Positions 888 through 9,584 of a stretch of 64,000 bases of DNA are shown one piece after another; position 1 is the first letter of the stretch; every line of letters starts with the position of its first letter. A model generated the notes under the pieces. That model was not told where the DNA came from. It made no database searches and worked only from the letters and a program-made list of their open reading frames with translations. Source of the stretch: Erysipelotrichales bacterium (GTDB lineage: Bacteria; Bacillota_I; Bacilli_A; RF39; UBA660); the NCBI GenBank assembly GCA_022508565.1, contig JAFLUY010000004.1, positions 47,454 through 111,453 on the forward strand, in the 5' to 3' direction. The position numbers were made by a program, and so were the translations under genes.

Positions 888-1868
888 TTATTTTATGCGA
901 ATGAAAGCTCTGACAGAAACCGATTTTGATTTTATTTGATAAAAAGCATCATCTCGGTTAATTGAAAACCGAATTACTCTTGCATAAGTTGAACTTTCTT
1001 CAGTAGAAGAAAGTAAATTTTCATTTGTTTCTGCTAAAAGTTTAATAATAATATTTTCTTGATCAAGATCTTTTAAATATAATAAAGAACTATTAATTAT
1101 TTTTCTCCTCGGTACAACATATCCTAATTCACCACATCCTGGAAGATACCATTCTCCTTGTTTTGATCCTTCTGGACAAAATCTCCAACAACAACATGCA
1201 GCTGGAGTATATCCGGTTTGATAATTATTTAATATATTGTCATCTATTTTCCAGGTTGTTTGCTGTTTAAATAAATTTATTAAAATATTTGTATTATTTA
1301 TTCCATCAAAATCTGATAATGCATTTAATGAATAACTAGTAGGTTGATAATATTCTTTTGATCTTGATATTCCATCGGCGTCATAAGGAGAATATCCAAA
1401 TTTAGTAACTGATATAGAATTATGAAACCAAGATAAAGGGTCGTTAGATGCGAAATATTCATTATTTAAAATTAAATCATCAGTAGGTAAATAAACCAAA
1501 CGGTCTTCGGTTCTTGGTCCTTTTGTTCGTTCATGATTTGCTAATATAGTATCTACATTATACATACCATAACAAATATTATTATTTTCTATTCCTCCAT
1601 CATTTGGTGTATCGCAACTCATGTTTACTAAACTCATTGCTCCGGCTTCCCCAGTTCCATAAACGTCATGTGAACTCGGTATGACTATAACAGCTAATGG
1701 ATTATATCGAGATATTGGGAATTTTTCAGCTGGATTATTTATATCAATAACTATTTTCTTATCCTCTTCCCTATCATAAAGAACTATATTTCCAACGTCA
1801 TAATTGCTCGTTTTAATAGTTCCTGTCAAACAAGGCCCATTTTCAACCATTAAAGATCTGCGTCTCAT
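888..1868 (-). CDS. hypothetical virion-associated protein with a Cys-cluster motif
   Basis: 326 aa. Contains TPAACCCWRFCPEGSKQGEWYLPGCGEL, loosely reminiscent of the W-R/H-x-P core seen in the FISUMP-like domains elsewhere in this window. The start overlaps the upstream stop by 4 nt (ATGA-type coupling). Confidence 0.55.
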   Translation of the reverse strand: MRRRSLMVENGPCLTGTIKTSNYDVGNIVLYDREEDKKIVIDINNPAEKFPISRYNPLAVIVIPSSHDVYGTGEAGAMSLVNMSCDTPNDGGIENNNICYGMYNVDTILANHERTKGPRTEDRLVYLPTDDLILNNEYFASNDPLSWFHNSISVTKFGYSPYDADGISRSKEYYQPTSYSLNALSDFDGINNTNILINLFKQQTTWKIDDNILNNYQTGYTPAACCCWRFCPEGSKQGEWYLPGCGELGYVVPRRKIINSSLLYLKDLDQENIIIKLLAETNENLLSSTEESSTYARVIRFSINRDDAFYQIKSKSVSVRAFIRIK

Positions 1869-2863
1869 ATTAAATCAAAATTCAATTTTTCTGGGTAGCC
1901 AGTTTTATAATCATAATTATCAACTTCTTCAATCGTTTCTAAAGATTCCACATTTAGCTTATGTTGTTTAGTTATGATAAAGCATTGATCAGCATATAAT
2001 TGAAGAGCAGCTAACATCATTTCGCCTTTTTCTGGTTCAATATTAAGCATGTTGTCACCGACGTAGAAAGATAGCTCTTTGACGCCAAATATCTTTGCAG
2101 ATTCAATAGATTGCTTATAATTCAAACGTTCTTGAACACTAAACCAAGCAGATAACATATTGTTTATCGTAAATGAGTTTACATTCTCACTAACATCATA
2201 TTCATCAATCTTCCAAATCATTTCTCTCTTAGCATCTTCAAGAGTTCTTTCTGGGGCAGTAGGTTCAGGAGTAATTTCCATATTCCAGACTTCAGATAGT
2301 GAAGCATTTGGATTTTTCTTCTTAAACGCCAACTGTTTTTTAGAAAGCTTTACCCATTTATTATCTAAATAATCTTCCCAAGTCGTTCCTAAATTATCAA
2401 ATAAAGATTCATCTAAATCGAAATCAAATTCAATATAATGTATAGGGATACCCCTTTTTATATATGTTGAATATGTTTTCAATTTCATTACCAAAACTTC
2501 TTCTACATCTGCTTTCGGCTTATCTTCATGGAATTTTGCTTGATCTTCAGAAAGAAGTACATATTTTCCATCTAAATAATCATTCCATGTGTCTCCGATT
2601 AAATATTCAGATGGATCTAAAGGAAATTCAGTACTCATATAAATTTCTTCTAAATCTTTCTGAATATAAGTCAGATTTGATCTAAGAGTCATTCTCCAGA
2701 TTTCTTCAATATCAGCTTCTGGATTATCTTCATGGAATTTAATCTGATCTTCAGAAAGCTCTACATATTTTCCATCCAAATAATCATTCCATGTTTCGCC
2801 GACATTTTCTGTCAAGTTTTCATCGAATGATAATATTTCATTATTATATATGTAAGTTATCAT
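1865..2863 (-). CDS. hypothetical protein with three tandem ~60-aa internal repeats
   Basis: Repeats: ETWNDYLDGKYVELSEDQIKFHEDNPEADIEEIWRM, DTWNDYLDGKYVLLSEDQAKFHEDKPKADVEEVLVM and TTWEDYLDNKWVKLSKKQLAFKKKNPNASLSEVWNM. The DNA is also visibly repeated (2300-2840). Confidence 0.6.
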   Translation of the reverse strand: MITYIYNNEILSFDENLTENVGETWNDYLDGKYVELSEDQIKFHEDNPEADIEEIWRMTLRSNLTYIQKDLEEIYMSTEFPLDPSEYLIGDTWNDYLDGKYVLLSEDQAKFHEDKPKADVEEVLVMKLKTYSTYIKRGIPIHYIEFDFDLDESLFDNLGTTWEDYLDNKWVKLSKKQLAFKKKNPNASLSEVWNMEITPEPTAPERTLEDAKREMIWKIDEYDVSENVNSFTINNMLSAWFSVQERLNYKQSIESAKIFGVKELSFYVGDNMLNIEPEKGEMMLAALQLYADQCFIITKQHKLNVESLETIEEVDNYDYKTGYPEKLNFDLI

Positions 2864-2885: not shown

Positions 2886-5800
2886 TTAAGAAGTTTTGAC
2901 AAAATAAATTTTTGCGTCGTTCGAATATAAATCTTTATTTTGGAATGCGAGTATATTCAATTCAGCATATCCAGTTGCCGGAACTGTAAGAGAAGTATTT
3001 CCATCAGTTGCTATAACTTGGTAACGCGCATTAGTGATATATGTAGGAATTGTTATCACTTTATCAGCAGAAGTTGAATTATAAAATATTATATGTAATT
3101 CTTCTCCGGCCGGAAGAGATCTTATACTTAATGTCCAGTTTACTGAAATAACTGCATATACAAGTTGTTTATTTGAGGGCACTACAGCTGTTGACGAAGA
3201 TATAGTAAAAGCGCTATCTGCTATTCCTTTTCTAGCTCCTGGGTCTATAAATTGAGAGAGATTTCCAGATTCATCATTGGCGAAATTAGTTGTATATTCT
3301 TGTGCCGTTATACTAGGATTTAATCGCAAAACCGGATATGTTGACGATACAGTACCGGTACGATTTTGATAAGTAGATGGTTTTGAACCTCCATGAACTC
3401 CTGAATGAATATGTATATTTGCGACATAATAACTTGGCGTAGTTGATTGGGTACTACTATTAAATAATGCAATATTAGATACTCCAGGATCTATTATTAC
3501 ATTTGTTACATAATTTTCAGGCGTTACGGTAACTGCATCATTAGTGTATTCATAATTATATGAAGATTGCTTACCGAATAATATGTTTGATGAATCATTA
3601 ATTATATTGTGTGAACAATAATCTCCACATTTAAAGTTTTCGCTATTGATTATTCGATTGCTTACGCAACTATTTCCTAAATCAATATTTATTACACTAT
3701 CAAAAATATTTCCTGAACAAGTTGAACCAGTAGTCAATCTTCTAATGTTTTTTACAAAATGATTATTCTGATTTACTGATCCTAATGTCAAATTAGTAAT
3801 AAATTGACCAAAAATATTATACATACAATTATTACTGATAACATTGTTTGACATATATATTCCTATGGTATTATATGAAAATCCATTACCAAGAGTATTA
3901 TTCCCGAATGCTTTTCCTATTGCATTACGGGTACAAGTATAGCCAAATGTATTTTGAATGCAATAATTTTCTAAAGAATTATATTTAAATCCATATCCAA
4001 ATATATTATTGTAACAATTAATACCAAATAAATTTCCTTCAGCTCCGTATTCAAACGTAAAATTATAGCAATTGTAATCAAATGTATTTTCGAGATATGA
4101 ACTATTTGTATTACCGCCAATAAAGCAAATATTATTTAAGTAATATTTACCATCTATCATACAAGGTTTTATTATATTATTAAAAGCTCCCGAATTTTTA
4201 TTAGTATAATAACTTACTGTAATATCTCCGTATGATGTTGATGTAATTGTATAGTTGTCAAATGTATAGCAAACACGTGTATATGTATTATCTGTACCAG
4301 TAAAATCCATATATTTATTTACTGTTGAATTTCTCCAACGCCTAAATGTGATATTTTTAAAATCATAAGGAACATCATTTCCAAATTCATCAATCATTCT
4401 ATAAATTATACCTCTACCAACTTGAGTATTCGCCCATGTATATGTTTCGGTATCATTATCTAATTTATACCATATTTTCCATGCTCCTAAGTTACAATTT
4501 TTAAAATAAGTATCTCCTTCATGATGCATTGCACGAGCTTCTTCACTAAGAGTATTTTCATTAAGCGCTTGAACAACTATATCAAATCTATTTTTGAGAG
4601 TTTGTGCTCCAGTATATGATACACCATTAATTGTCCAAGAAATATTATATACTGATGTTCCATAATCCGTTATTCTATATAACATACCTCCGACAAGTTT
4701 TCCTTCGTCGCGTAAGTTCTTGAGTTCTTCCCAAGTTACACTAATCATCTTCGGAAGATTCTTCTGGAGATTTATCATCGGTTTTTCATAGAATTCTCCG
4801 GAAGCTGATGTATCCGATACATAGATATCACCACCTCTTCTTACTTCGAAAGCGTTATGTCTTCCGGCTTCTTCTGGAATACTTGAAATAGTCAAAGTAA
4901 TATATTCTGCAGAATTTCCGAATTCGTCATTGTCTGATATGCAATATAGTGTAACTTTTGCAGAATTGGTACTATTATTTACATTGATTTTAGCAATAAA
5001 TCCCATTCTTGTATCTTCGGAAACTCTTTCTAATTCTGGGAAGTCGTGTTCTAAATCACTTCCATAAGTATATAAGCAATAAATATTAGTATCTTCTAAA
5101 AGTTTAGTCTTAACTTTAGTTATTGCATTGTCTCCAATTGTGATATTATAACCAATGATATTTTCAAAATTAATTGGATTTTCTAAAGTTACTGATGTGA
5201 TATATGCTCTAACATATAAATTCTTACCAGAAACTGGATCATGAAGATAACTACCGGTCGTTGTTAAAGTACAATTTCCGTCGATCAATATTTCAGTATC
5301 TGGAACATCTACATCAGGTAAACCATTACCAATAGTGAATATTGTTGATTCTGGATCAAATTTGTTTTCAATATCTGAATCATATCCATTATCATCGTCA
5401 TATCCATCATCACTGGCTTTCGGGGTTCCGTCTGAATTAAGCGCTTGACGGCTTAAGTTATATATTCCAGAAGCATGTTCAGCTTCATTATAAGTCTTAT
5501 TATATAACCCTTCAGCATGTGATGAATGACCTAAAGCAATATTTTCTGTTCCTTCGGCATGTGAAGATATTCCTTCGGCCTCAGTATTTGTTCCTTCAGC
5601 ATGCGATGCATATCCTCTGGCGGTTGTTGATTCTCCTTCGGCATGTGAAGCATAATCTAAAGCGATAGTTGAAAAACCTTCAGCATGTGAATAATTTGCT
5701 TGAGTATTAGTATATCCACCTTCAGTATGTGAGCCGCGTCCTGAAGCAATTGTGTATTCACCTTCAGCATGACTTGAATTTGGGGTACCTATATGTTCAG

Positions 5801-8800
5801 GATTTTGATTACTTGATTCTAATCCAGATATATTATTCAAACCTTCAACAAATGAATAATTTGAAAGAGCTTTATTATTTGAACCCGTAGCAAATGAATA
5901 TTCTCCATAAGCTTCGACGTTTTCACCAATAGCAATAGATCCTGTTCTTGTTGCCGTTGAAGATTTTCCGTGAGCAAATGAAAAATCTCCAGTAGCTGAG
6001 CTTGTACCACTAGCTATAGAATTGCTTCCGCTTGCTGTTGCTTCTTCTGTATGAATTCCGCCATCTTCTTCGTTTATCCACCCACAATCAAGTCCAGGGA
6101 TAGTCAAATCTAAAGCGTAAGTATTAGTTGTTGCATTTGTTTGTCTTATGTTAGCACTAGCAGGAGTTCCGCTAGATACTGTTCCAATTTCCATTTTTGG
6201 TGAAATTCCAGGATCTCCTTTTGCTCCAGGTTCACCTTTAAGTTTACTAAAATTAAACGTTAAGTTTTTTGCTTGATTTGTTCCGCTTGGAGTTACGGTA
6301 ACTGATGGGGTACCGACTAATGCATCGATATTTGCAGTTATTGTACCGAATCCAGCATCTTTACCATCATTACCATTAGTACCATTTGTTCCATCTTTAC
6401 CAGGTGTTCCGGGATCTCCCTTAGGACCTTTTATGTTTTTAGTGACAGGCGCTGTCGAGGAATTCTTAGTCCAAGTCAATTCTCCCGCATCGGATACCGA
6501 AGGAACCCAAGTATCACCAACTTCACCTTTATCGCCAGTTTCTCCCTTAAGATAATCAAATGTAATAGTTGTCTTATTTCCGGAAGTTTGCGGAGTTACT
6601 GTTACGGTACCGGTCTTATTGATATTTGATCCGGATTTTACTTCGACGGTTGGCGTTACGCCGTCATCACCTTTCGCTCCCTGATCACCTTTCTCACCTT
6701 GATCTCCTTTAGGACCTTTTATATTTTTAGCTACCGGAGTTGTTGATGAATTCTTTGCCCAAGACAATTCACCGTCATCTGATACAGAAGGAACCCAAGT
6801 ATCACCATCTTTACCGTTAGTACCGTCTTTACCTGGAGCTCCTTCGTCACCCTTATCTCCTTTGTCGCCTTTAGGAAGAGTCAAATCTAAAGAATAAGTA
6901 TTTGTTGAGACATTAGATAATCTCACATCAGCCAAAGCGGTTGTTCCACTGGAAACTGTACCGATTTGCATCTTAGCAGAATCGCCAGCCGCTCCGGTAT
7001 CACCTTTGGCGCCGGCTTCACCAGTTTCACCCTTATCACCTTTAGCACCTTTGAGATTTGAAAAATTAAAATTCAAAGTTTTTGCAAGATTCGTTCCTCC
7101 TTCGGTAACAGTTACCGAGGGATTTCCTGATTCGTCTCCTGAGTATTCTGCAGTAACTCTAATCAATTCTGCATTTTCTCCATCATCACCTTTGTCGCCT
7201 TTATTTCCTTGATCTCCTTTAGGACCTTTAAGATTATGGAAATCTAATGTGATAGTCTTTCCATCATTAGGACCAGTGACTGTACCTGTAGCAGATGGAA
7301 CTCCTGTATTGTCATCTACATTAATGATAATGTTTGTTATATCAGCGTTTTGTCCGGGGTCTCCTTTAGGACCTTTGACTTCACCGCCATCTGTAAATGT
7401 ACTTCCATTATACACCCAGATGTGTCCTGTGGTTGTATCTATATAAGCATCACCAACATTTGTACATTCGGCTTGTGAAGATTTAACACTTATACCCGTA
7501 CCATCTTCACCTTTATCTCCTTTTTCTCCTTTTATTCCAGAGAAATTGAAAGTGATATTTTTTGCAGTATTTGCTCCATCGGAATTTACCGTGACCGCTG
7601 GTGTGCCTATTGAATTATCTATAGTTGCTTTAATAGTACCGAATCCAGCATCTTTACCATCGTTACCAGCAGGACCTTGTATACCTTGTTCGCCTTTTAG
7701 ATTATGAAAAGCGATATTGAATTCTCTTTGAGTTGATGTACCAGATCTAGTTATTTCTACAGAAGGTTCTCCAACATTTGCATCTATCGTAGCTCTAATT
7801 TCTGCAATATCTGCTGCAGCGCCATCTGCTCCGTCTTTTCCGGGAGCTCCTTCATCACCTTTATCTCCTTTGTCACCTTTGTCACCTTTATCTCCTTTTA
7901 GGTTTGAAAATTTAAATGATATGGTTTTTGAATCGTTAGGACCAGAAATACTCGATTCTACTCTAGGTTCTCCTTCATCTTCAATCAATTCAGTTGAAAT
8001 CGATACGATATTAGCGTTTTGTCCAGGATCTCCCTTAGGGCCTTGTGGTCCAGATTCTCCTTTAAGATAATCAAAAGTAAATACAGTCTTATTATCTACC
8101 TTTTCTGAAGTTACAGTAGGAGTTCCTACTTTATCTATATTAGATCCAGAATTTGCTTCAATGTTTACTGGAATATCTTCTAAAATATTATTGATTTCAG
8201 TTTTATTATATACATCTTCTTTATTAGCATATACATCTTGTTCACCATATATAGGGAAGAAGAAATTAGCTATTTTTGGATTAGCTGTTCTATATTGTTC
8301 AAGAAGGTTTTCTGGAACATAAATTTTTAGATTTGATTTAGGTTTGCCGTCATACAATATTTTTCTTTCTTGTTCGGCTACTGAACCTGGTACAGTATTA
8401 TCTACCTTTAAAATCCAAGTTTGAATCTTATCATAATTAGTTATTAAGGTCTTACTACTAAATATTACCTCCTCTAATCTTGCAGGTAATGGGAATCTCA
8501 CATCATTAAAGAATGTTGACTTACTTTCAATCTTTCTTGGATATAGATAATATACTCCACTATTTATTTGAGTTAAAGTAGATGGGATTGTTATTTTATT
8601 TATCGTTTTATTTACAGAAAGTGGCCAGTTTGTCATCGTGATCATTCCTTCTGGAATATCAAAAACGTCAAAATTACACCTATGAAATATTTCTGACCCT
8701 ATAAATGACTTTACTTTATTTAAATTTATTGTATGTAAATTTGAACAACCATCAAAAGCGGCTCCTTTAATTGTTTGCACACTATCAGGTAATTCAATAG

Positions 8801-9584
8801 TCGTTAAAGATTTACAATTTTCAAAACCGAATTCATTAATGACATTTACTTTGTTCGGTATAGTTATATTCAATAATGAAGTACAAGTACCAAATAAACA
8901 TTCTTCAATAGACGTCAAATTTTCAGGTAATGTACATGTAGTAAGCGAAACACAATCACATAAAGCATAACCGCCAATAGATTTTACAGACTGTGGGAAA
9001 ATTATACTTGTTAATGATGAATCTGCTTGAAAACATCCTCCACCAATTGTTTCAATACCGTCATATAAGATGATGTCTCTGAGATTCTTACATTTAGTTA
9101 CAGCATCATTACCAATTATTTTGAAAGACCCTGAAATTTCTATAGACTTAAGATTGTCTTTGTTTTGTATAAAATTATCAGGAATATTTTCTGAATTAAG
9201 TTGAATTATGCCAAAACCACGTTCAGGATAATAAACATTAGATTCGATAACAGAATTATTCAACTCTAAAACTTCATTATCGAAAGTCACATATTTTATT
9301 TGACCATCTTCGATACCGTTTTTAAAGTTTTTGTAATTATTAAATTCAGTAGCTAATTCTTCTACATTCTTATCGACTTCATCGATTTTACCTGACAACT
9401 CTGTATCATCATAAGCATTATTTTCAATACTTTTCAACTTTTCAGATATTACTTTTTGTGAAATAGTACCTGTAGTTGAATTGCCTAATTCTTGAAAGAC
9501 TTCTGGAGTAGTTACATTAAATACTCCAATATTTTGTTTTTTACCGTCTTTGTCTAGATATTTTAATTGCTTCATTTTAATCAT
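2886..9584 (-). CDS. giant (2232 aa) chimeric tail-fibre/adhesin-like protein: BspA-type leucine-rich repeats + interrupted collagen-like G-X-Y segments + [ST]HAEG 14-mer repeats + Cys-patterned octapeptide repeats
   Basis: Uninterrupted 6.7-kb ORF. Residues ~110-300 carry repeated 'F..C.sLtsI.lP.sv..Ig..aF..C..L' units (LRR_5/BspA-like). From ~520-1135 there are multiple G-X-Y runs (GPKGDPGQ, KGDKGDKGDKGDEGAPGKDGADG, KGPKGDQGEKGDQGAKGDDG), each preceded by an F/N-x-F-x-x-LKG box. From ~1180-1380 come YSHAEG/SSHAEG 14-residue repeats. At ~1560 lies the module AGRHNAFEVRRGGDIYVSDT, which is shared with the 1164-aa paralogue. At ~1650-1720 lies the module GIIYRMIDEFGNDVPYDFKNI, which is shared with the 598-aa protein. 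At ~1790-1960 come the NCYNNIFG / YCIQNTFG / CMYNIFG octapeptide repeats. Confidence 0.85.
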   Translation of the reverse strand: MIKMKQLKYLDKDGKKQNIGVFNVTTPEVFQELGNSTTGTISQKVISEKLKSIENNAYDDTELSGKIDEVDKNVEELATEFNNYKNFKNGIEDGQIKYVTFDNEVLELNNSVIESNVYYPERGFGIIQLNSENIPDNFIQNKDNLKSIEISGSFKIIGNDAVTKCKNLRDIILYDGIETIGGGCFQADSSLTSIIFPQSVKSIGGYALCDCVSLTTCTLPENLTSIEECLFGTCTSLLNITIPNKVNVINEFGFENCKSLTTIELPDSVQTIKGAAFDGCSNLHTINLNKVKSFIGSEIFHRCNFDVFDIPEGMITMTNWPLSVNKTINKITIPSTLTQINSGVYYLYPRKIESKSTFFNDVRFPLPARLEEVIFSSKTLITNYDKIQTWILKVDNTVPGSVAEQERKILYDGKPKSNLKIYVPENLLEQYRTANPKIANFFFPIYGEQDVYANKEDVYNKTEINNILEDIPVNIEANSGSNIDKVGTPTVTSEKVDNKTVFTFDYLKGESGPQGPKGDPGQNANIVSISTELIEDEGEPRVESSISGPNDSKTISFKFSNLKGDKGDKGDKGDKGDEGAPGKDGADGAAADIAEIRATIDANVGEPSVEITRSGTSTQREFNIAFHNLKGEQGIQGPAGNDGKDAGFGTIKATIDNSIGTPAVTVNSDGANTAKNITFNFSGIKGEKGDKGEDGTGISVKSSQAECTNVGDAYIDTTTGHIWVYNGSTFTDGGEVKGPKGDPGQNADITNIIINVDDNTGVPSATGTVTGPNDGKTITLDFHNLKGPKGDQGNKGDKGDDGENAELIRVTAEYSGDESGNPSVTVTEGGTNLAKTLNFNFSNLKGAKGDKGETGEAGAKGDTGAAGDSAKMQIGTVSSGTTALADVRLSNVSTNTYSLDLTLPKGDKGDKGDEGAPGKDGTNGKDGDTWVPSVSDDGELSWAKNSSTTPVAKNIKGPKGDQGEKGDQGAKGDDGVTPTVEVKSGSNINKTGTVTVTPQTSGNKTTITFDYLKGETGDKGEVGDTWVPSVSDAGELTWTKNSSTAPVTKNIKGPKGDPGTPGKDGTNGTNGNDGKDAGFGTITANIDALVGTPSVTVTPSGTNQAKNLTFNFSKLKGEPGAKGDPGISPKMEIGTVSSGTPASANIRQTNATTNTYALDLTIPGLDCGWINEEDGGIHTEEATASGSNSIASGTSSATGDFSFAHGKSSTATRTGSIAIGENVEAYGEYSFATGSNNKALSNYSFVEGLNNISGLESSNQNPEHIGTPNSSHAEGEYTIASGRGSHTEGGYTNTQANYSHAEGFSTIALDYASHAEGESTTARGYASHAEGTNTEAEGISSHAEGTENIALGHSSHAEGLYNKTYNEAEHASGIYNLSRQALNSDGTPKASDDGYDDDNGYDSDIENKFDPESTIFTIGNGLPDVDVPDTEILIDGNCTLTTTGSYLHDPVSGKNLYVRAYITSVTLENPINFENIIGYNITIGDNAITKVKTKLLEDTNIYCLYTYGSDLEHDFPELERVSEDTRMGFIAKINVNNSTNSAKVTLYCISDNDEFGNSAEYITLTISSIPEEAGRHNAFEVRRGGDIYVSDTSASGEFYEKPMINLQKNLPKMISVTWEELKNLRDEGKLVGGMLYRITDYGTSVYNISWTINGVSYTGAQTLKNRFDIVVQALNENTLSEEARAMHHEGDTYFKNCNLGAWKIWYKLDNDTETYTWANTQVGRGIIYRMIDEFGNDVPYDFKNITFRRWRNSTVNKYMDFTGTDNTYTRVCYTFDNYTITSTSYGDITVSYYTNKNSGAFNNIIKPCMIDGKYYLNNICFIGGNTNSSYLENTFDYNCYNFTFEYGAEGNLFGINCYNNIFGYGFKYNSLENYCIQNTFGYTCTRNAIGKAFGNNTLGNGFSYNTIGIYMSNNVISNNCMYNIFGQFITNLTLGSVNQNNHFVKNIRRLTTGSTCSGNIFDSVINIDLGNSCVSNRIINSENFKCGDYCSHNIINDSSNILFGKQSSYNYEYTNDAVTVTPENYVTNVIIDPGVSNIALFNSSTQSTTPSYYVANIHIHSGVHGGSKPSTYQNRTGTVSSTYPVLRLNPSITAQEYTTNFANDESGNLSQFIDPGARKGIADSAFTISSSTAVVPSNKQLVYAVISVNWTLSIRSLPAGEELHIIFYNSTSADKVITIPTYITNARYQVIATDGNTSLTVPATGYAELNILAFQNKDLYSNDAKIYFVKTS
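6180..8060 (-). repeat. coding tandem repeats: interrupted collagen-like (G-X-Y)n modules inside the 2232-aa gene
   Basis: Repeated GGTCC/GGACC-rich and AAAGGTGACAAAGGTGA-type DNA (e.g. 7860-7900 encodes KGDKGDKGDKGD). At least eight G-X-Y blocks of 4-10 triplets are separated by ~60-100-aa non-collagen spacers. Confidence 0.8.

Follow-up and report, generated by a model that had tools for sequence, protein, structure and literature searches.

A nonapeptide-repeat module of phage tail-fibre proteins, predicted to form a narrow β-solenoid

Two fibre proteins and the module they share

The window analysed here, a stretch of 64,000 nucleotides, carries two fibre genes of a huge gut phage, both encoded on the minus strand. 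One specifies a composite protein of 2232 amino acids (aa); the product of the other, 598 aa long, is identical to the NCBI hypothetical protein J1F35_03530, encoded on a contig of 377,382 bp. The features of both genes are given below, each with its basis in brackets.

2886..9584, minus: gene for the 2232-aa composite fibre protein (ORF list and translation)
4326..4742, minus: head domain, residues ~1615-1753 (head HMM match at 1615-1753; BLASTP to the 598-aa protein)
4098..4325, minus: linker or first irregular coils, residues ~1754-1829 (alignment consensus)
3558..4097, minus: nonapeptide array, residues 1830-2009 (six-frame periodicity scan, register, shuffle test)
3255..3557, minus: C-terminal cap domain, residues ~2010-2110 (BLASTP alignment reaches residue 2110)
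2889..3254, minus: extra C-terminal ~120 residues (outside the BLASTP alignment)
20105..21901, minus: gene for the 598-aa fibre protein, in which one module comes after an N-terminal anchor (ORF list and translation)
21563..21901, minus: N-terminal anchor, residues 1-113 (all-against-all BLASTP)
21158..21547, minus: head domain, residues 119-248 (head HMM; pLDDT 87-98)
20945..21157, minus: linker or first irregular coils, residues 249-319 (alignment consensus, AlphaFold2 model)
20432..20944, minus: nonapeptide array, residues 320-490 (periodicity scan, register, shuffle test)
20108..20431, minus: C-terminal cap domain, residues 491-598 (homologous to residues 2010-2110 of the 2232-aa protein)

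A BLASTP alignment of residues 1616-2110 of the large protein with residues 120-594 of the small one (35% identity over 516 columns, E 7e-73) establishes that the two are homologous, and in the heads the DNA itself is 75% identical over 244 nt (4351-4594 versus 21180-21423). The motifs YRIxDY, SEEA..HH.GDTYF, WKIWY.LDNDT and GIIYRMIDEFGND.PYDFKNI, from which a preliminary description of this DNA had recognised the relationship, are present, and its coordinates for the head of the small protein (21185-21570) are right. Its outline of a shared 130-residue domain followed by repeats was correct as to homology and too short as to extent, for the common region covers about 500 residues and includes a C-terminal domain. 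The parts of this region are a head of ~130 aa, a linker of ~75 aa, 15-19 nonapeptides in the two window proteins and a C-terminal domain of ~100 aa, the last marked in both by the motif NI[YH]IH.GVHGG ... YP[IV]L. We favour the reading, as one element of the joint explanation developed below, that each protein holds a single copy of a self-contained phage tail-fibre module of ~430-500 residues.

The surroundings of the module differ between the two proteins. In the 2232-aa protein the order is BspA-type leucine-rich repeats (LRR), collagen-like repeats, YadA-head-like repeats, the module and the extra C-terminal ~120 aa; Pfam recognises LRR_5, Collagen and YadA_head, and PHROG tail-fibre families match residues ~500-1400. 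Its head has an insertion of ~10 aa relative to the family and a pLDDT of 87-98 over most of the domain in the AlphaFold2 model, the linker (conserved CYTF and N-x-IK-P motifs) is modelled with moderate confidence (pLDDT 57-85), and the cap, homologous to the end of the 598-aa protein, consists of β strands at pLDDT 37-84, whereas the extra C-terminal residues have no counterpart in the small protein and stay mostly below pLDDT 55. In the 598-aa protein the cap is again built of β strands (pLDDT 62-90), preceded by a low-confidence loop. The anchor of this protein, of low pLDDT in the monomer model, recurs at the N-termini of a 921-aa (12512..15277) and a 470-aa protein (15510..16922), which carry different distal parts behind it (41% identity, E 2.7e-19, and 37% identity, E 3.9e-17, in an all-against-all BLASTP of the window proteins). 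Downstream of the two window copies no conserved partner or chaperone gene was found, the genes that follow them (19053..19994; 1865..2863 and 888..1868) being mutually unrelated.

The nonapeptide repeat and its predicted fold

The repeat, initially taken for an octapeptide or a unit of 8-10 residues, is a strict nonapeptide with the register C-x-x-N-x-[FLI]-G-x-x. The array of the 598-aa protein consists of 19 units without a break in register, with Cys at position 0 in 12 of them. That of the 2232-aa protein has 15 strict units (residues 1830-1964, DNA 3693-4097), followed by ~4-5 degenerate units with one 1-residue slip; seven of the 15 strict units keep the Cys, the others having F, M, I, A, Y or N. 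Sequence identity peaks at lags of 9, 18 and 27 residues (0.28, 0.30 and 0.31 in the small protein, z 7.7-8.6; 0.17, 0.28 and 0.22 in the large one, z 4.2-8.8), values reached by at most 2 of 5,000 shuffles, while at lag 5 there is no peak (0.08-0.09, background). A six-frame scan of the window revealed no further arrays of this kind. Across the family, 290 unique arrays with 4,419 units yield the consensus C-x-x-N-[TS]-F-G-[ND]-x (C 81%, N 94%, T 46% or S 27%, F 78%, G 78%, N 46%), and the number of units per array ranges from 8 to 47.

The family statistics also contain a second, longer period. Units separated by an even number of steps are more alike than those separated by an odd number (p 2.6e-5, 2.7e-13 and 5e-3), identity being highest at unit lags 2 and 4 and lowest at lag 3 (of lags 1-4), and Asn at position 7 follows a two-unit alternation; together these patterns point to coils of 18 residues, with two nonapeptides per turn. 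Two independent AlphaFold2 monomer models agree in a confident head (pLDDT above 90) followed by a regular, narrow β-solenoid of short strands, in which the repeat regions have a moderate pLDDT of about 60-91. A narrow β-solenoid had been anticipated in the preliminary description, and neither model lacks the regular solenoid whose absence was named there as evidence against it. In the small protein the secondary structure assigned by DSSP is 'E--EE----' per unit (pLDDT 60-91); in the large protein the strands are spaced by 9 and then by 17/18 residues (pLDDT 72-88). Foldseek searches returned weak, generic β-helix resemblances (best PDB match E 0.03, TM 0.1-0.2, rmsd 10-25 Å), mostly to β-helical glycoside hydrolases, lyases and tailspikes.

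The arrangement that monomer models and family statistics make most likely is a narrow parallel β-solenoid, each coil of which would take up two nonapeptides (18 residues). Inside it Cys, Asn and Phe would form stacked ladders, with Gly placed in the turn and positions 1, 2, 7 and 8 exposed to the solvent. The replacements at the Cys position, F, S or Y across the family and F, M, I or A in the 2232-aa protein, are as expected for a buried core position.

A large family in the tail fibres of gut phages

The module belongs to a very large family that is absent from the libraries searched. A phmmer search with the head of the 598-aa protein retrieved 3,614 cluster representatives (at 50% identity) from a set of 1.84 billion proteins; almost all of them stem from gut or rumen metagenomes without annotation. 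In Pfam, PHROGs, NCBIfam and the PDB sequences nothing matches the module save one marginal domain model and one spurious repeat match, in keeping with the earlier remark that no known family was recognised in it. The marginal model, DUF7850 (PF25235), is the only one in the libraries to touch the head: it aligns with residues 549-616 of family member P0020, inside the second head of that protein (28.5 bits, cut-off 27), matches 2 of 21 diverse heads at E ~0.01, spans only about half of head and model alike, and fails to match the window proteins at E up to 1. DUF7850 is itself an uncharacterised family, and no paper mentioning it was found. Across the family, the head residues kept at 90% or more are the D of YRITDY, DND, the D of M.DE, the N of GND and YDF.N. 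Acidic and amide residues (D, E, N) are numerous among the conserved positions of the head, a composition that could also mark an active or metal-binding site.

Two further candidates were rejected. CroV588 (PDB 6nyr, E 7e-12) contains an FNIP leucine-rich repeat, and its match is regarded as an artefact of repeat composition because of high bias, low posterior probabilities and mismatched periods; the FNIP/FGxxFN repeat is 22-23 residues long, LxxLxFGxxFNQxIxENVLPxx (PMC9525666). An 'ADP-ribosyltransferase' of Acinetobacter phage fLi-Aba02, found by tblastn with family member P0098, has an unrelated TGDNSASSA repeat. Neither literature searches on tail fibres with nonapeptide or Cys-rich solenoids nor a search of the RBPseg tail-fibre atlas (PMC12143355) by terms brought up a description of the module family.

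The module is part of phage tail-fibre proteins. Among 50,697 deposited phage genomes it was found only in Clostridium phage phiCT453A, deposited twice (GenBank and RefSeq), where gp53 (AJA42543.1), an annotated tail fibre with a Phage_tail_fib N-terminal domain, is encoded directly after the baseplate J and XkdU genes. In tblastn, gp53 aligns with 64% of the 598-aa query at 28.6% identity (E 4e-19; E 2e-21 with P0098) and has a divergent head followed by ~35 nonapeptides C-x-x-N-x-[FL]-G. It differs from the window proteins in its own N-terminal anchor, its much more divergent head and its Gram-positive clostridial host, and its annotation, 'tail fiber protein' only, says nothing on repeat or function. 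Other homologues begin with Mtd_N or Phage_fiber_rpt, and the 46-kb contig of family member P0104 also encodes terminase, portal and capsid proteins; at least one member, P0098, stands alone in an ordinary bacterial chromosomal neighbourhood. In IMG/VR, 97 viral loci match, on contigs of 5-355 kb, with 79 distinct loci among the matches listed.

Two to five modules follow one another in 150 of the 249 proteins retrieved, and in the 2232-aa protein ~120 further residues lie C-terminal to the module. The idea that the module is the distal tip of the fibre accordingly survives in part: a distal role in specificity agrees with the swapped anchors and with the fast-evolving surface of the repeats, whereas a position that is always terminal is contradicted by the tandem arrangement.

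Probable host adhesion and the alternatives

The explanation that we consider best, and more probable than not taken as a whole, is that the module is a length-tunable host-adhesion rod, a narrow β-solenoid, in a very large uncatalogued phage family. Interchangeable N-terminal anchors and shafts would attach it to the particle, by way of the 113-aa anchor in the 598-aa protein and of an LRR/collagen/YadA-like shaft in the 2232-aa protein, and the rod would show its variable outer face and its cap to the host surface as an element of adhesion and specificity whose length can be tuned. The rod probably targets a polysaccharide on the surface of gut anaerobes. Specificity cannot lie in the head, which is too well conserved between phages that infect different hosts; more likely it nucleates or caps the solenoid, or mediates oligomerisation.

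Variability within the module was compared in 298 module pairs with similar heads, which are not independent of one another and in which faster change at the surface would be expected for any solenoid; mean identity was 0.87 in the head, 0.91 at scaffold and 0.63 at surface positions of the array, and 0.73 in the C-terminal domain. A diversity-generating retroelement target was considered and rejected, as the arrays have no near-identical, template-like DNA repeat and the 64-kb window of this 377-kb genome contains no reverse transcriptase-like ORF. Hints in the direction of such an element had come from one homologue that carries Mtd_N and from the abundance of N, S, Y and D at the variable positions.

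The same data bear on the view that the array acts only as a structural spacer, fixing how long and how stiff the fibre is, with binding left to the C-terminal cap, to inserted domains or to other fibre proteins. The wide range of repeat numbers and the modules strung in tandem like beads would suit such a part, the large domains inserted in some heads could be the real binders, and many other fibre proteins are encoded in the window. What makes this reading unlikely is that the surface positions of the array diverge faster than head, linker and C-terminal domain among close relatives, and that in one close pair (P0002 and P0012) the distal array has been essentially replaced (50% identity) while the flanks were kept, the heads being 91-95% identical.

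An enzymatic role, with the head as the catalytic domain of a polysaccharide depolymerase or esterase and the solenoid as its substrate-binding platform, appears just as unlikely. It would explain why the head is the most conserved part of the module, with several polar residues at 90% or more, and it agrees with the kinds of protein that dominate the weak Foldseek matches, but those matches are generic (E at least 0.03, TM at most 0.2, rmsd 10-25 Å) and no HMM of an enzyme family in Pfam, NCBIfam or PHROGs recognises the module. The HH-x-GDTYF motif, once suggested as a place to look for catalytic residues, does not hold up across the family, in which neither His is conserved at 90% or more, and the head tolerates insertions of 150-300 aa. 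The narrow 18-residue coils offer no loops from which a cleft could be built, their number varies about five-fold, and a depolymerase with more than one module in its chain would be out of the ordinary. Nothing was found in support of enzymatic activity.

The remaining alternatives concern the architecture of the rod. Tail fibres are usually trimers, and the C-terminal spike of T4 gp5 is a triple-stranded β-helix. If three chains were intertwined in the manner of that spike, each would contribute one 9-residue face per layer and the Cys would point towards the three-fold axis, perhaps binding metal. The collagen and YadA-like trimeric elements upstream in the 2232-aa protein fit this picture, at 81-89% the Cys is more conserved than a mere small residue of the core would lead one to expect, and intertwining could not be revealed by AlphaFold2 runs that were monomer-only. 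Such a helix, though, predicts a period of 27 residues, or three units, which is precisely the lag of lowest identity, as against the maxima at lags 2 and 4; bulky F or Y readily takes the place of the Cys, and for two proteins the models show, at fair confidence, a solenoid formed by a single chain. We regard the triple-stranded form as improbable.

Bacteroidales, Clostridia and similar gut and rumen taxa, from whose assemblies nearly all genome matches come, are strict anaerobes of strongly reducing habitats, in which disulfides are not expected to form. Stapling of the solenoid by disulfides, as suggested in the preliminary description and known from Cys-rich insect antifreeze β-helices, would suit an 18-residue coil in that its two Cys, one from each nonapeptide, could face each other across a narrow core, but it is very improbable given that Cys losses are isolated (in adjacent units 187 single versus 15 double losses; odds ratio 1.5, p 0.18, not significant), that Cys counts are odd in 148 of 290 arrays, and that the window proteins keep the Cys in only 7 of 15 and 12 of 19 units, with hydrophobic replacements.

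Returning to the adhesion rod, a more far-reaching version can be offered tentatively. The array might represent an undescribed class of β-solenoid, with 18-residue coils and stacked ladders of free-thiol Cys, Asn and Phe, that serves thousands of gut and rumen phages, huge ones included, as their chief programmable scaffold for receptor binding, and host range might be set by the outward residues and by cassette-like exchange and expansion of repeats. Ladders of free thiols would be affordable because the hosts live without oxygen.

Phages of Bacteroidales and other gut anaerobes have receptor-binding proteins that are, to our knowledge, poorly characterised, and this limits host prediction for the many gut and rumen phages that are uncultured. 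Though very widespread, the module lacks a usable model in Pfam, PHROGs and NCBIfam as well as a solved structure. Once defined, it would give an immediate annotation handle for the tail fibres of metagenomic phages and a candidate host-range locus in the outward repeat positions and the repeat number, and a solenoid so compact and regular could interest structural biologists and protein designers.

Comparison with known solenoids

The tailspike and pectate lyase β-helices (Pfam clan CL0268) resemble the predicted form of the module as parallel β-solenoid rods with an Asn ladder that occur in phage host-recognition proteins, and apart from one weak match to MfpA they are the only kind of structure that Foldseek returns. 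They differ in having coils of ~22 residues or more, as opposed to 18 in the module, which has no T-loops and no cleft; Pfam Beta_helix and Pectate_lyase_3 do not match the window proteins at E up to 1, nor any of 57 family members. An already catalogued β-helix of the pectate-lyase type, the outcome that would have made the module an ordinary one, is hence contradicted by HMM searches, Foldseek scores (E at least 0.03) and coil length alike.

Pentapeptide-repeat proteins (Rfr, e.g. MfpA) share with the predicted form of the module a very regular, narrow solenoid with inward Phe/Leu and a small inward residue per face, and the 9-mer could be read as a 5+4 pair of faces; MfpA is among the weak Foldseek matches (E 0.54, TMt 0.30). 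The module has a period of 9 in place of 5, N-T-F-G in place of A-[DN]-L-x-x, and no match to Pfam Pentapeptide. The antifreeze protein of Tenebrio molitor is, as the module is predicted to be, a narrow β-helix with Cys in every repeat. Its 12-residue TCTxSxxCxxAx coils, unlike the module in period and motif, are each cross-braced by a disulfide, whereas the parity and co-loss of the Cys in the module argue against pairs.

The RTX β-roll (HemolysinCabind, GGxGxDxUx) differs from the module in its GGxGxD motif, which the module lacks along with any Pfam HemolysinCabind match, in its calcium-binding Asp, where the module has Asn as well as a conserved Cys per unit, and in its place in type I secreted proteins, the module being a putative component of phage virions. 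Common to both is a period of nine residues, with two units, or 18 residues, to the turn; for the module this periodicity was measured. In the β-roll, the hydrophobic residue two positions after the Asp points into the core and is followed by a glycine in the turn; N-x-F in the module would correspond to D-x-U, with the hydrophobic residue facing inward and the turn Gly behind it.

A shared distal region built on nonapeptides

Minus-strand genes run through the first 36 kb of the window. Two of them, both within this run, encode proteins with a common distal module that consists of a head, a linker, a repeat array and a C-terminal cap:

2886..9584, minus strand: gene of the large protein, 2232 aa
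3693-4097, minus strand: array of the large protein (residues 1830-1964), 15 strict units, then a few degenerate ones
20105..21901, minus strand: gene of the small protein, 598 aa
20432-20944, minus strand: array of the small protein (residues 320-490), 19 units

In a BLASTP alignment of 516 columns (35% identity, E 7e-73), residues 1616-2110 of the large protein pair with residues 120-594 of the small one, and the region common to both is therefore ~500 aa long and includes the C-terminal domain. The preliminary description had proposed a homologous 130-aa domain followed by repeats; the homology is real, but its extent was underestimated. In the head-coding DNA, 244 nt are 75% identical (4351-4594 versus 21180-21423). 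The repeats are likewise genuine, but they are not octapeptides: both proteins follow a strict nonapeptide register, C-x-x-N-x-[FLI]-G-x-x, with self-identity at lags of 9, 18 and 27 residues lying 4-9 standard deviations over shuffled sequence. A scan of all reading frames found no further such array in the window. Family-wide, 290 unique arrays of 8-43 units (4,419 units) give the consensus C(81%)-x-x-N(94%)-[T46/S27]-F(78%)-G(78%)-N(46%)-x, in which the percentages for N and the hydrophobic columns are inflated because the units were located by means of these same columns.

A large family in a phage setting

The shared region of neither window protein matches Pfam, PHROGs, NCBIfam or PDB sequences. 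The small protein nevertheless has 1,922 scored homologues, nearly all of them unnamed metagenome proteins, and a ~160-aa head query against 1.84 billion 50%-identity clusters retrieved 3,614 representatives with E ≤ 1e-3, of which 3,236 reach E ≤ 1e-10. The head is followed by at least four nonapeptides in 373 of 423 modules, whose median length is ~430 aa; in some homologues a non-canonical repeat region comes after it. Unexpectedly, 150 of 249 retrieved proteins, a sample biased towards high scorers, carry 2-5 complete head-array-cap modules in tandem, and in 61 of the same biased sample an insertion of 150-300 aa interrupts the head, in many homologues between the W-A-x and G-K-G-V-I-Y motifs. 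Homologues noted for tandem modules or split heads are P0121, P0122, P0125, P0126 and locus L071 (7851-9902). Of the library models, only Pfam DUF7850 touches the family: it reaches its threshold over half of a single head (P0020) and gives marginal matches to 2 of 21 others; a literature search found no publication on it.

The parent contig (377,382 bp) was deposited as part of an Erysipelotrichales MAG. It encodes, at 31760..35170 on the minus strand, a 1136-aa protein (phrog_29329) with homologues in Lak megaphages, Sphingomonas phage PAU, Tenacibaculum phage pT24, Chryseobacterium phages and uncultured huge phages, and the neighbouring genes are large, fibre-like and mostly without annotation. 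On these grounds the contig is most likely a huge phage, probably mis-binned. In IMG/VR the module occurs on 97 loci (contigs of 5-355 kb), and it was found on a 46-kb contig that also encodes terminase, portal and capsid proteins. N-terminal domains preceding it elsewhere include Mtd_N, Phage_fiber_rpt and Phage_tail_fib. Clostridium phage phiCT453A, the only deposited phage with the module, has it in a protein annotated as a tail fibre, whose gene immediately follows those of the baseplate.

The window's fibre genes (9577-29553 and 51122-52723) are mosaic. Residues 1-113 of the small protein recur as N-termini of 921-aa and 470-aa proteins with different distal parts. The large protein's BspA-LRR region matches 9577..12498 and its YadA-like region is common to 23227..26721; YadA-head-like repeats (phrog_25468) occur in 23227..26721, 26755..29553, 51122..52723 and the large protein itself. 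A C-terminal stretch of ~335 aa is common to 15510..16922, 16947..18899 and 21921..23174 (45-64% identity), and residues 167-376 of 12512..15277 match the C-terminus of 23227..26721 (51%).

Between the fibre gene blocks lie, on the plus strand, genes for a DUF5672 protein (43107-43961) and a family-2 glycosyltransferase (49994-51001). GC content is 25-37% across the window, with its maximum at 4001-8000, an interval containing most of the large gene's collagen-like region; a search of 1-64000 found neither tRNA nor tmRNA genes. On a related contig of 365 kb (L163, 15228-18404), genes for a TnpB/Cas12f-like protein (OrfB_IS605) and an SmpB homologue lie near that of a family member. The family member P0098 (L164, 10001-11401) is a single, very regular module of 18 Cys units with neither a fibre anchor nor an evident signal peptide; its neighbours are ordinary bacterial genes (TonB receptor, ABC transporter, TatC, AraC), and no phage gene lies within 10 kb. 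The 'putative ADP-ribosyltransferase' of Acinetobacter phage fLi-Aba02 (L162, 3602-4639) contains another nonapeptide (ATGDNSASS), repeated ~17 times in tandem, and is unrelated to the family.

Variability and function

Comparing 298 module pairs with similar heads gives mean identities of 0.91 at scaffold positions, 0.87 in the head, 0.79 in the linker, 0.73 in the C-terminal domain and 0.63 at outward repeat positions. In one close pair (P0002 and P0012) the distal arrays are 50% identical and the heads 91-95%. Taken together, fibre context, anchor mosaicism and this variability pattern support a probable function as a distal, specificity-bearing, length-tunable adhesion rod. The variable repeat number and the tandem arrangement are also compatible with an array that serves purely as a spacer, a reading that fits less well with the variability pattern. 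Phages of different hosts share a conserved head; the head more likely nucleates folding, acts as a cap or mediates oligomerisation than forms the receptor-binding site. Its conserved D, E and N residues may point to an enzymatic role, but HMM and fold searches lend this no support, and the HH of the HH-x-GDTYF motif, initially put forward as possibly catalytic, is not conserved across the family.

Predicted fold and the cysteine column

AlphaFold2 models of the small protein (42-sequence alignment) and of the C-terminal 634 aa of the large protein (57 sequences) agree on the architecture: a compact, mostly β head (pLDDT 87-98), a less certain transition, an array of regular, very short strands ('E--EE----' per nonapeptide, pLDDT 60-90) and a β-rich C-terminal domain, with a 17-18-residue pattern in the degenerate repeats of the large protein. 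Modelling supports the β-solenoid idea. Foldseek hits in the PDB were all weak and fell on generic right-handed β-helix enzymes and tailspikes (E at least 0.03, TM 0.1-0.2, rmsd 10-25 Å); BFVD yielded two unnamed proteins and otherwise noise. The array is a predicted solenoid, but of none of the catalogued types; HMM, period and fold tests rule out an ordinary pectate-lyase β-helix, in keeping with the earlier remark that it was not a recognised family.

Identity between units is higher at lags of two and four units than at one and three (p 2.6e-5, 2.7e-13, 5e-3), and Asn at position 7 (Cys being position 0) recurs every second unit in many members, which points to a coil of two nonapeptides, 18 residues per turn. 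The same statistics argue against a three-faced 27-residue coil and an intertwined three-chain helix, and the lags also disfavour a metal-binding Cys axis. The conservation pattern suggests inward-facing C(0), N(3) and F(5), a turn position for G(6) and solvent exposure of positions 1, 2, 7 and 8.

Typical members have Cys in nearly every unit; the window proteins, with Cys in 12 of the small protein's 19 units and in 7 of the large protein's 15, are Cys-poor outliers. In the large protein F, M, I, A, Y or N stands in its place. The proposal of a disulfide-stapled solenoid is disfavoured: Cys losses are isolated across the family (adjacent co-loss odds ratio 1.5, p 0.18), F, S or Y takes the place of Cys, and 148 of the 290 arrays have an odd Cys count, all of which fits a buried small/hydrophobic ladder position and not obligatory disulfides. 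Genome matches come nearly all from gut and rumen assemblies (Bacteroidales, Clostridia, Treponema and similar taxa). Such habitats are strongly reducing, so that disulfide formation and oxidative damage to the Cys ladder would both be unlikely.

The finding is genuine and more general than first noticed: the module is one of the larger phage tail-fibre module families for which the domain and structure libraries searched offer no usable model. What is new is the nonapeptide repeat with its predicted solenoid; β-solenoid host-recognition modules are known, and the system is not categorically a new one.
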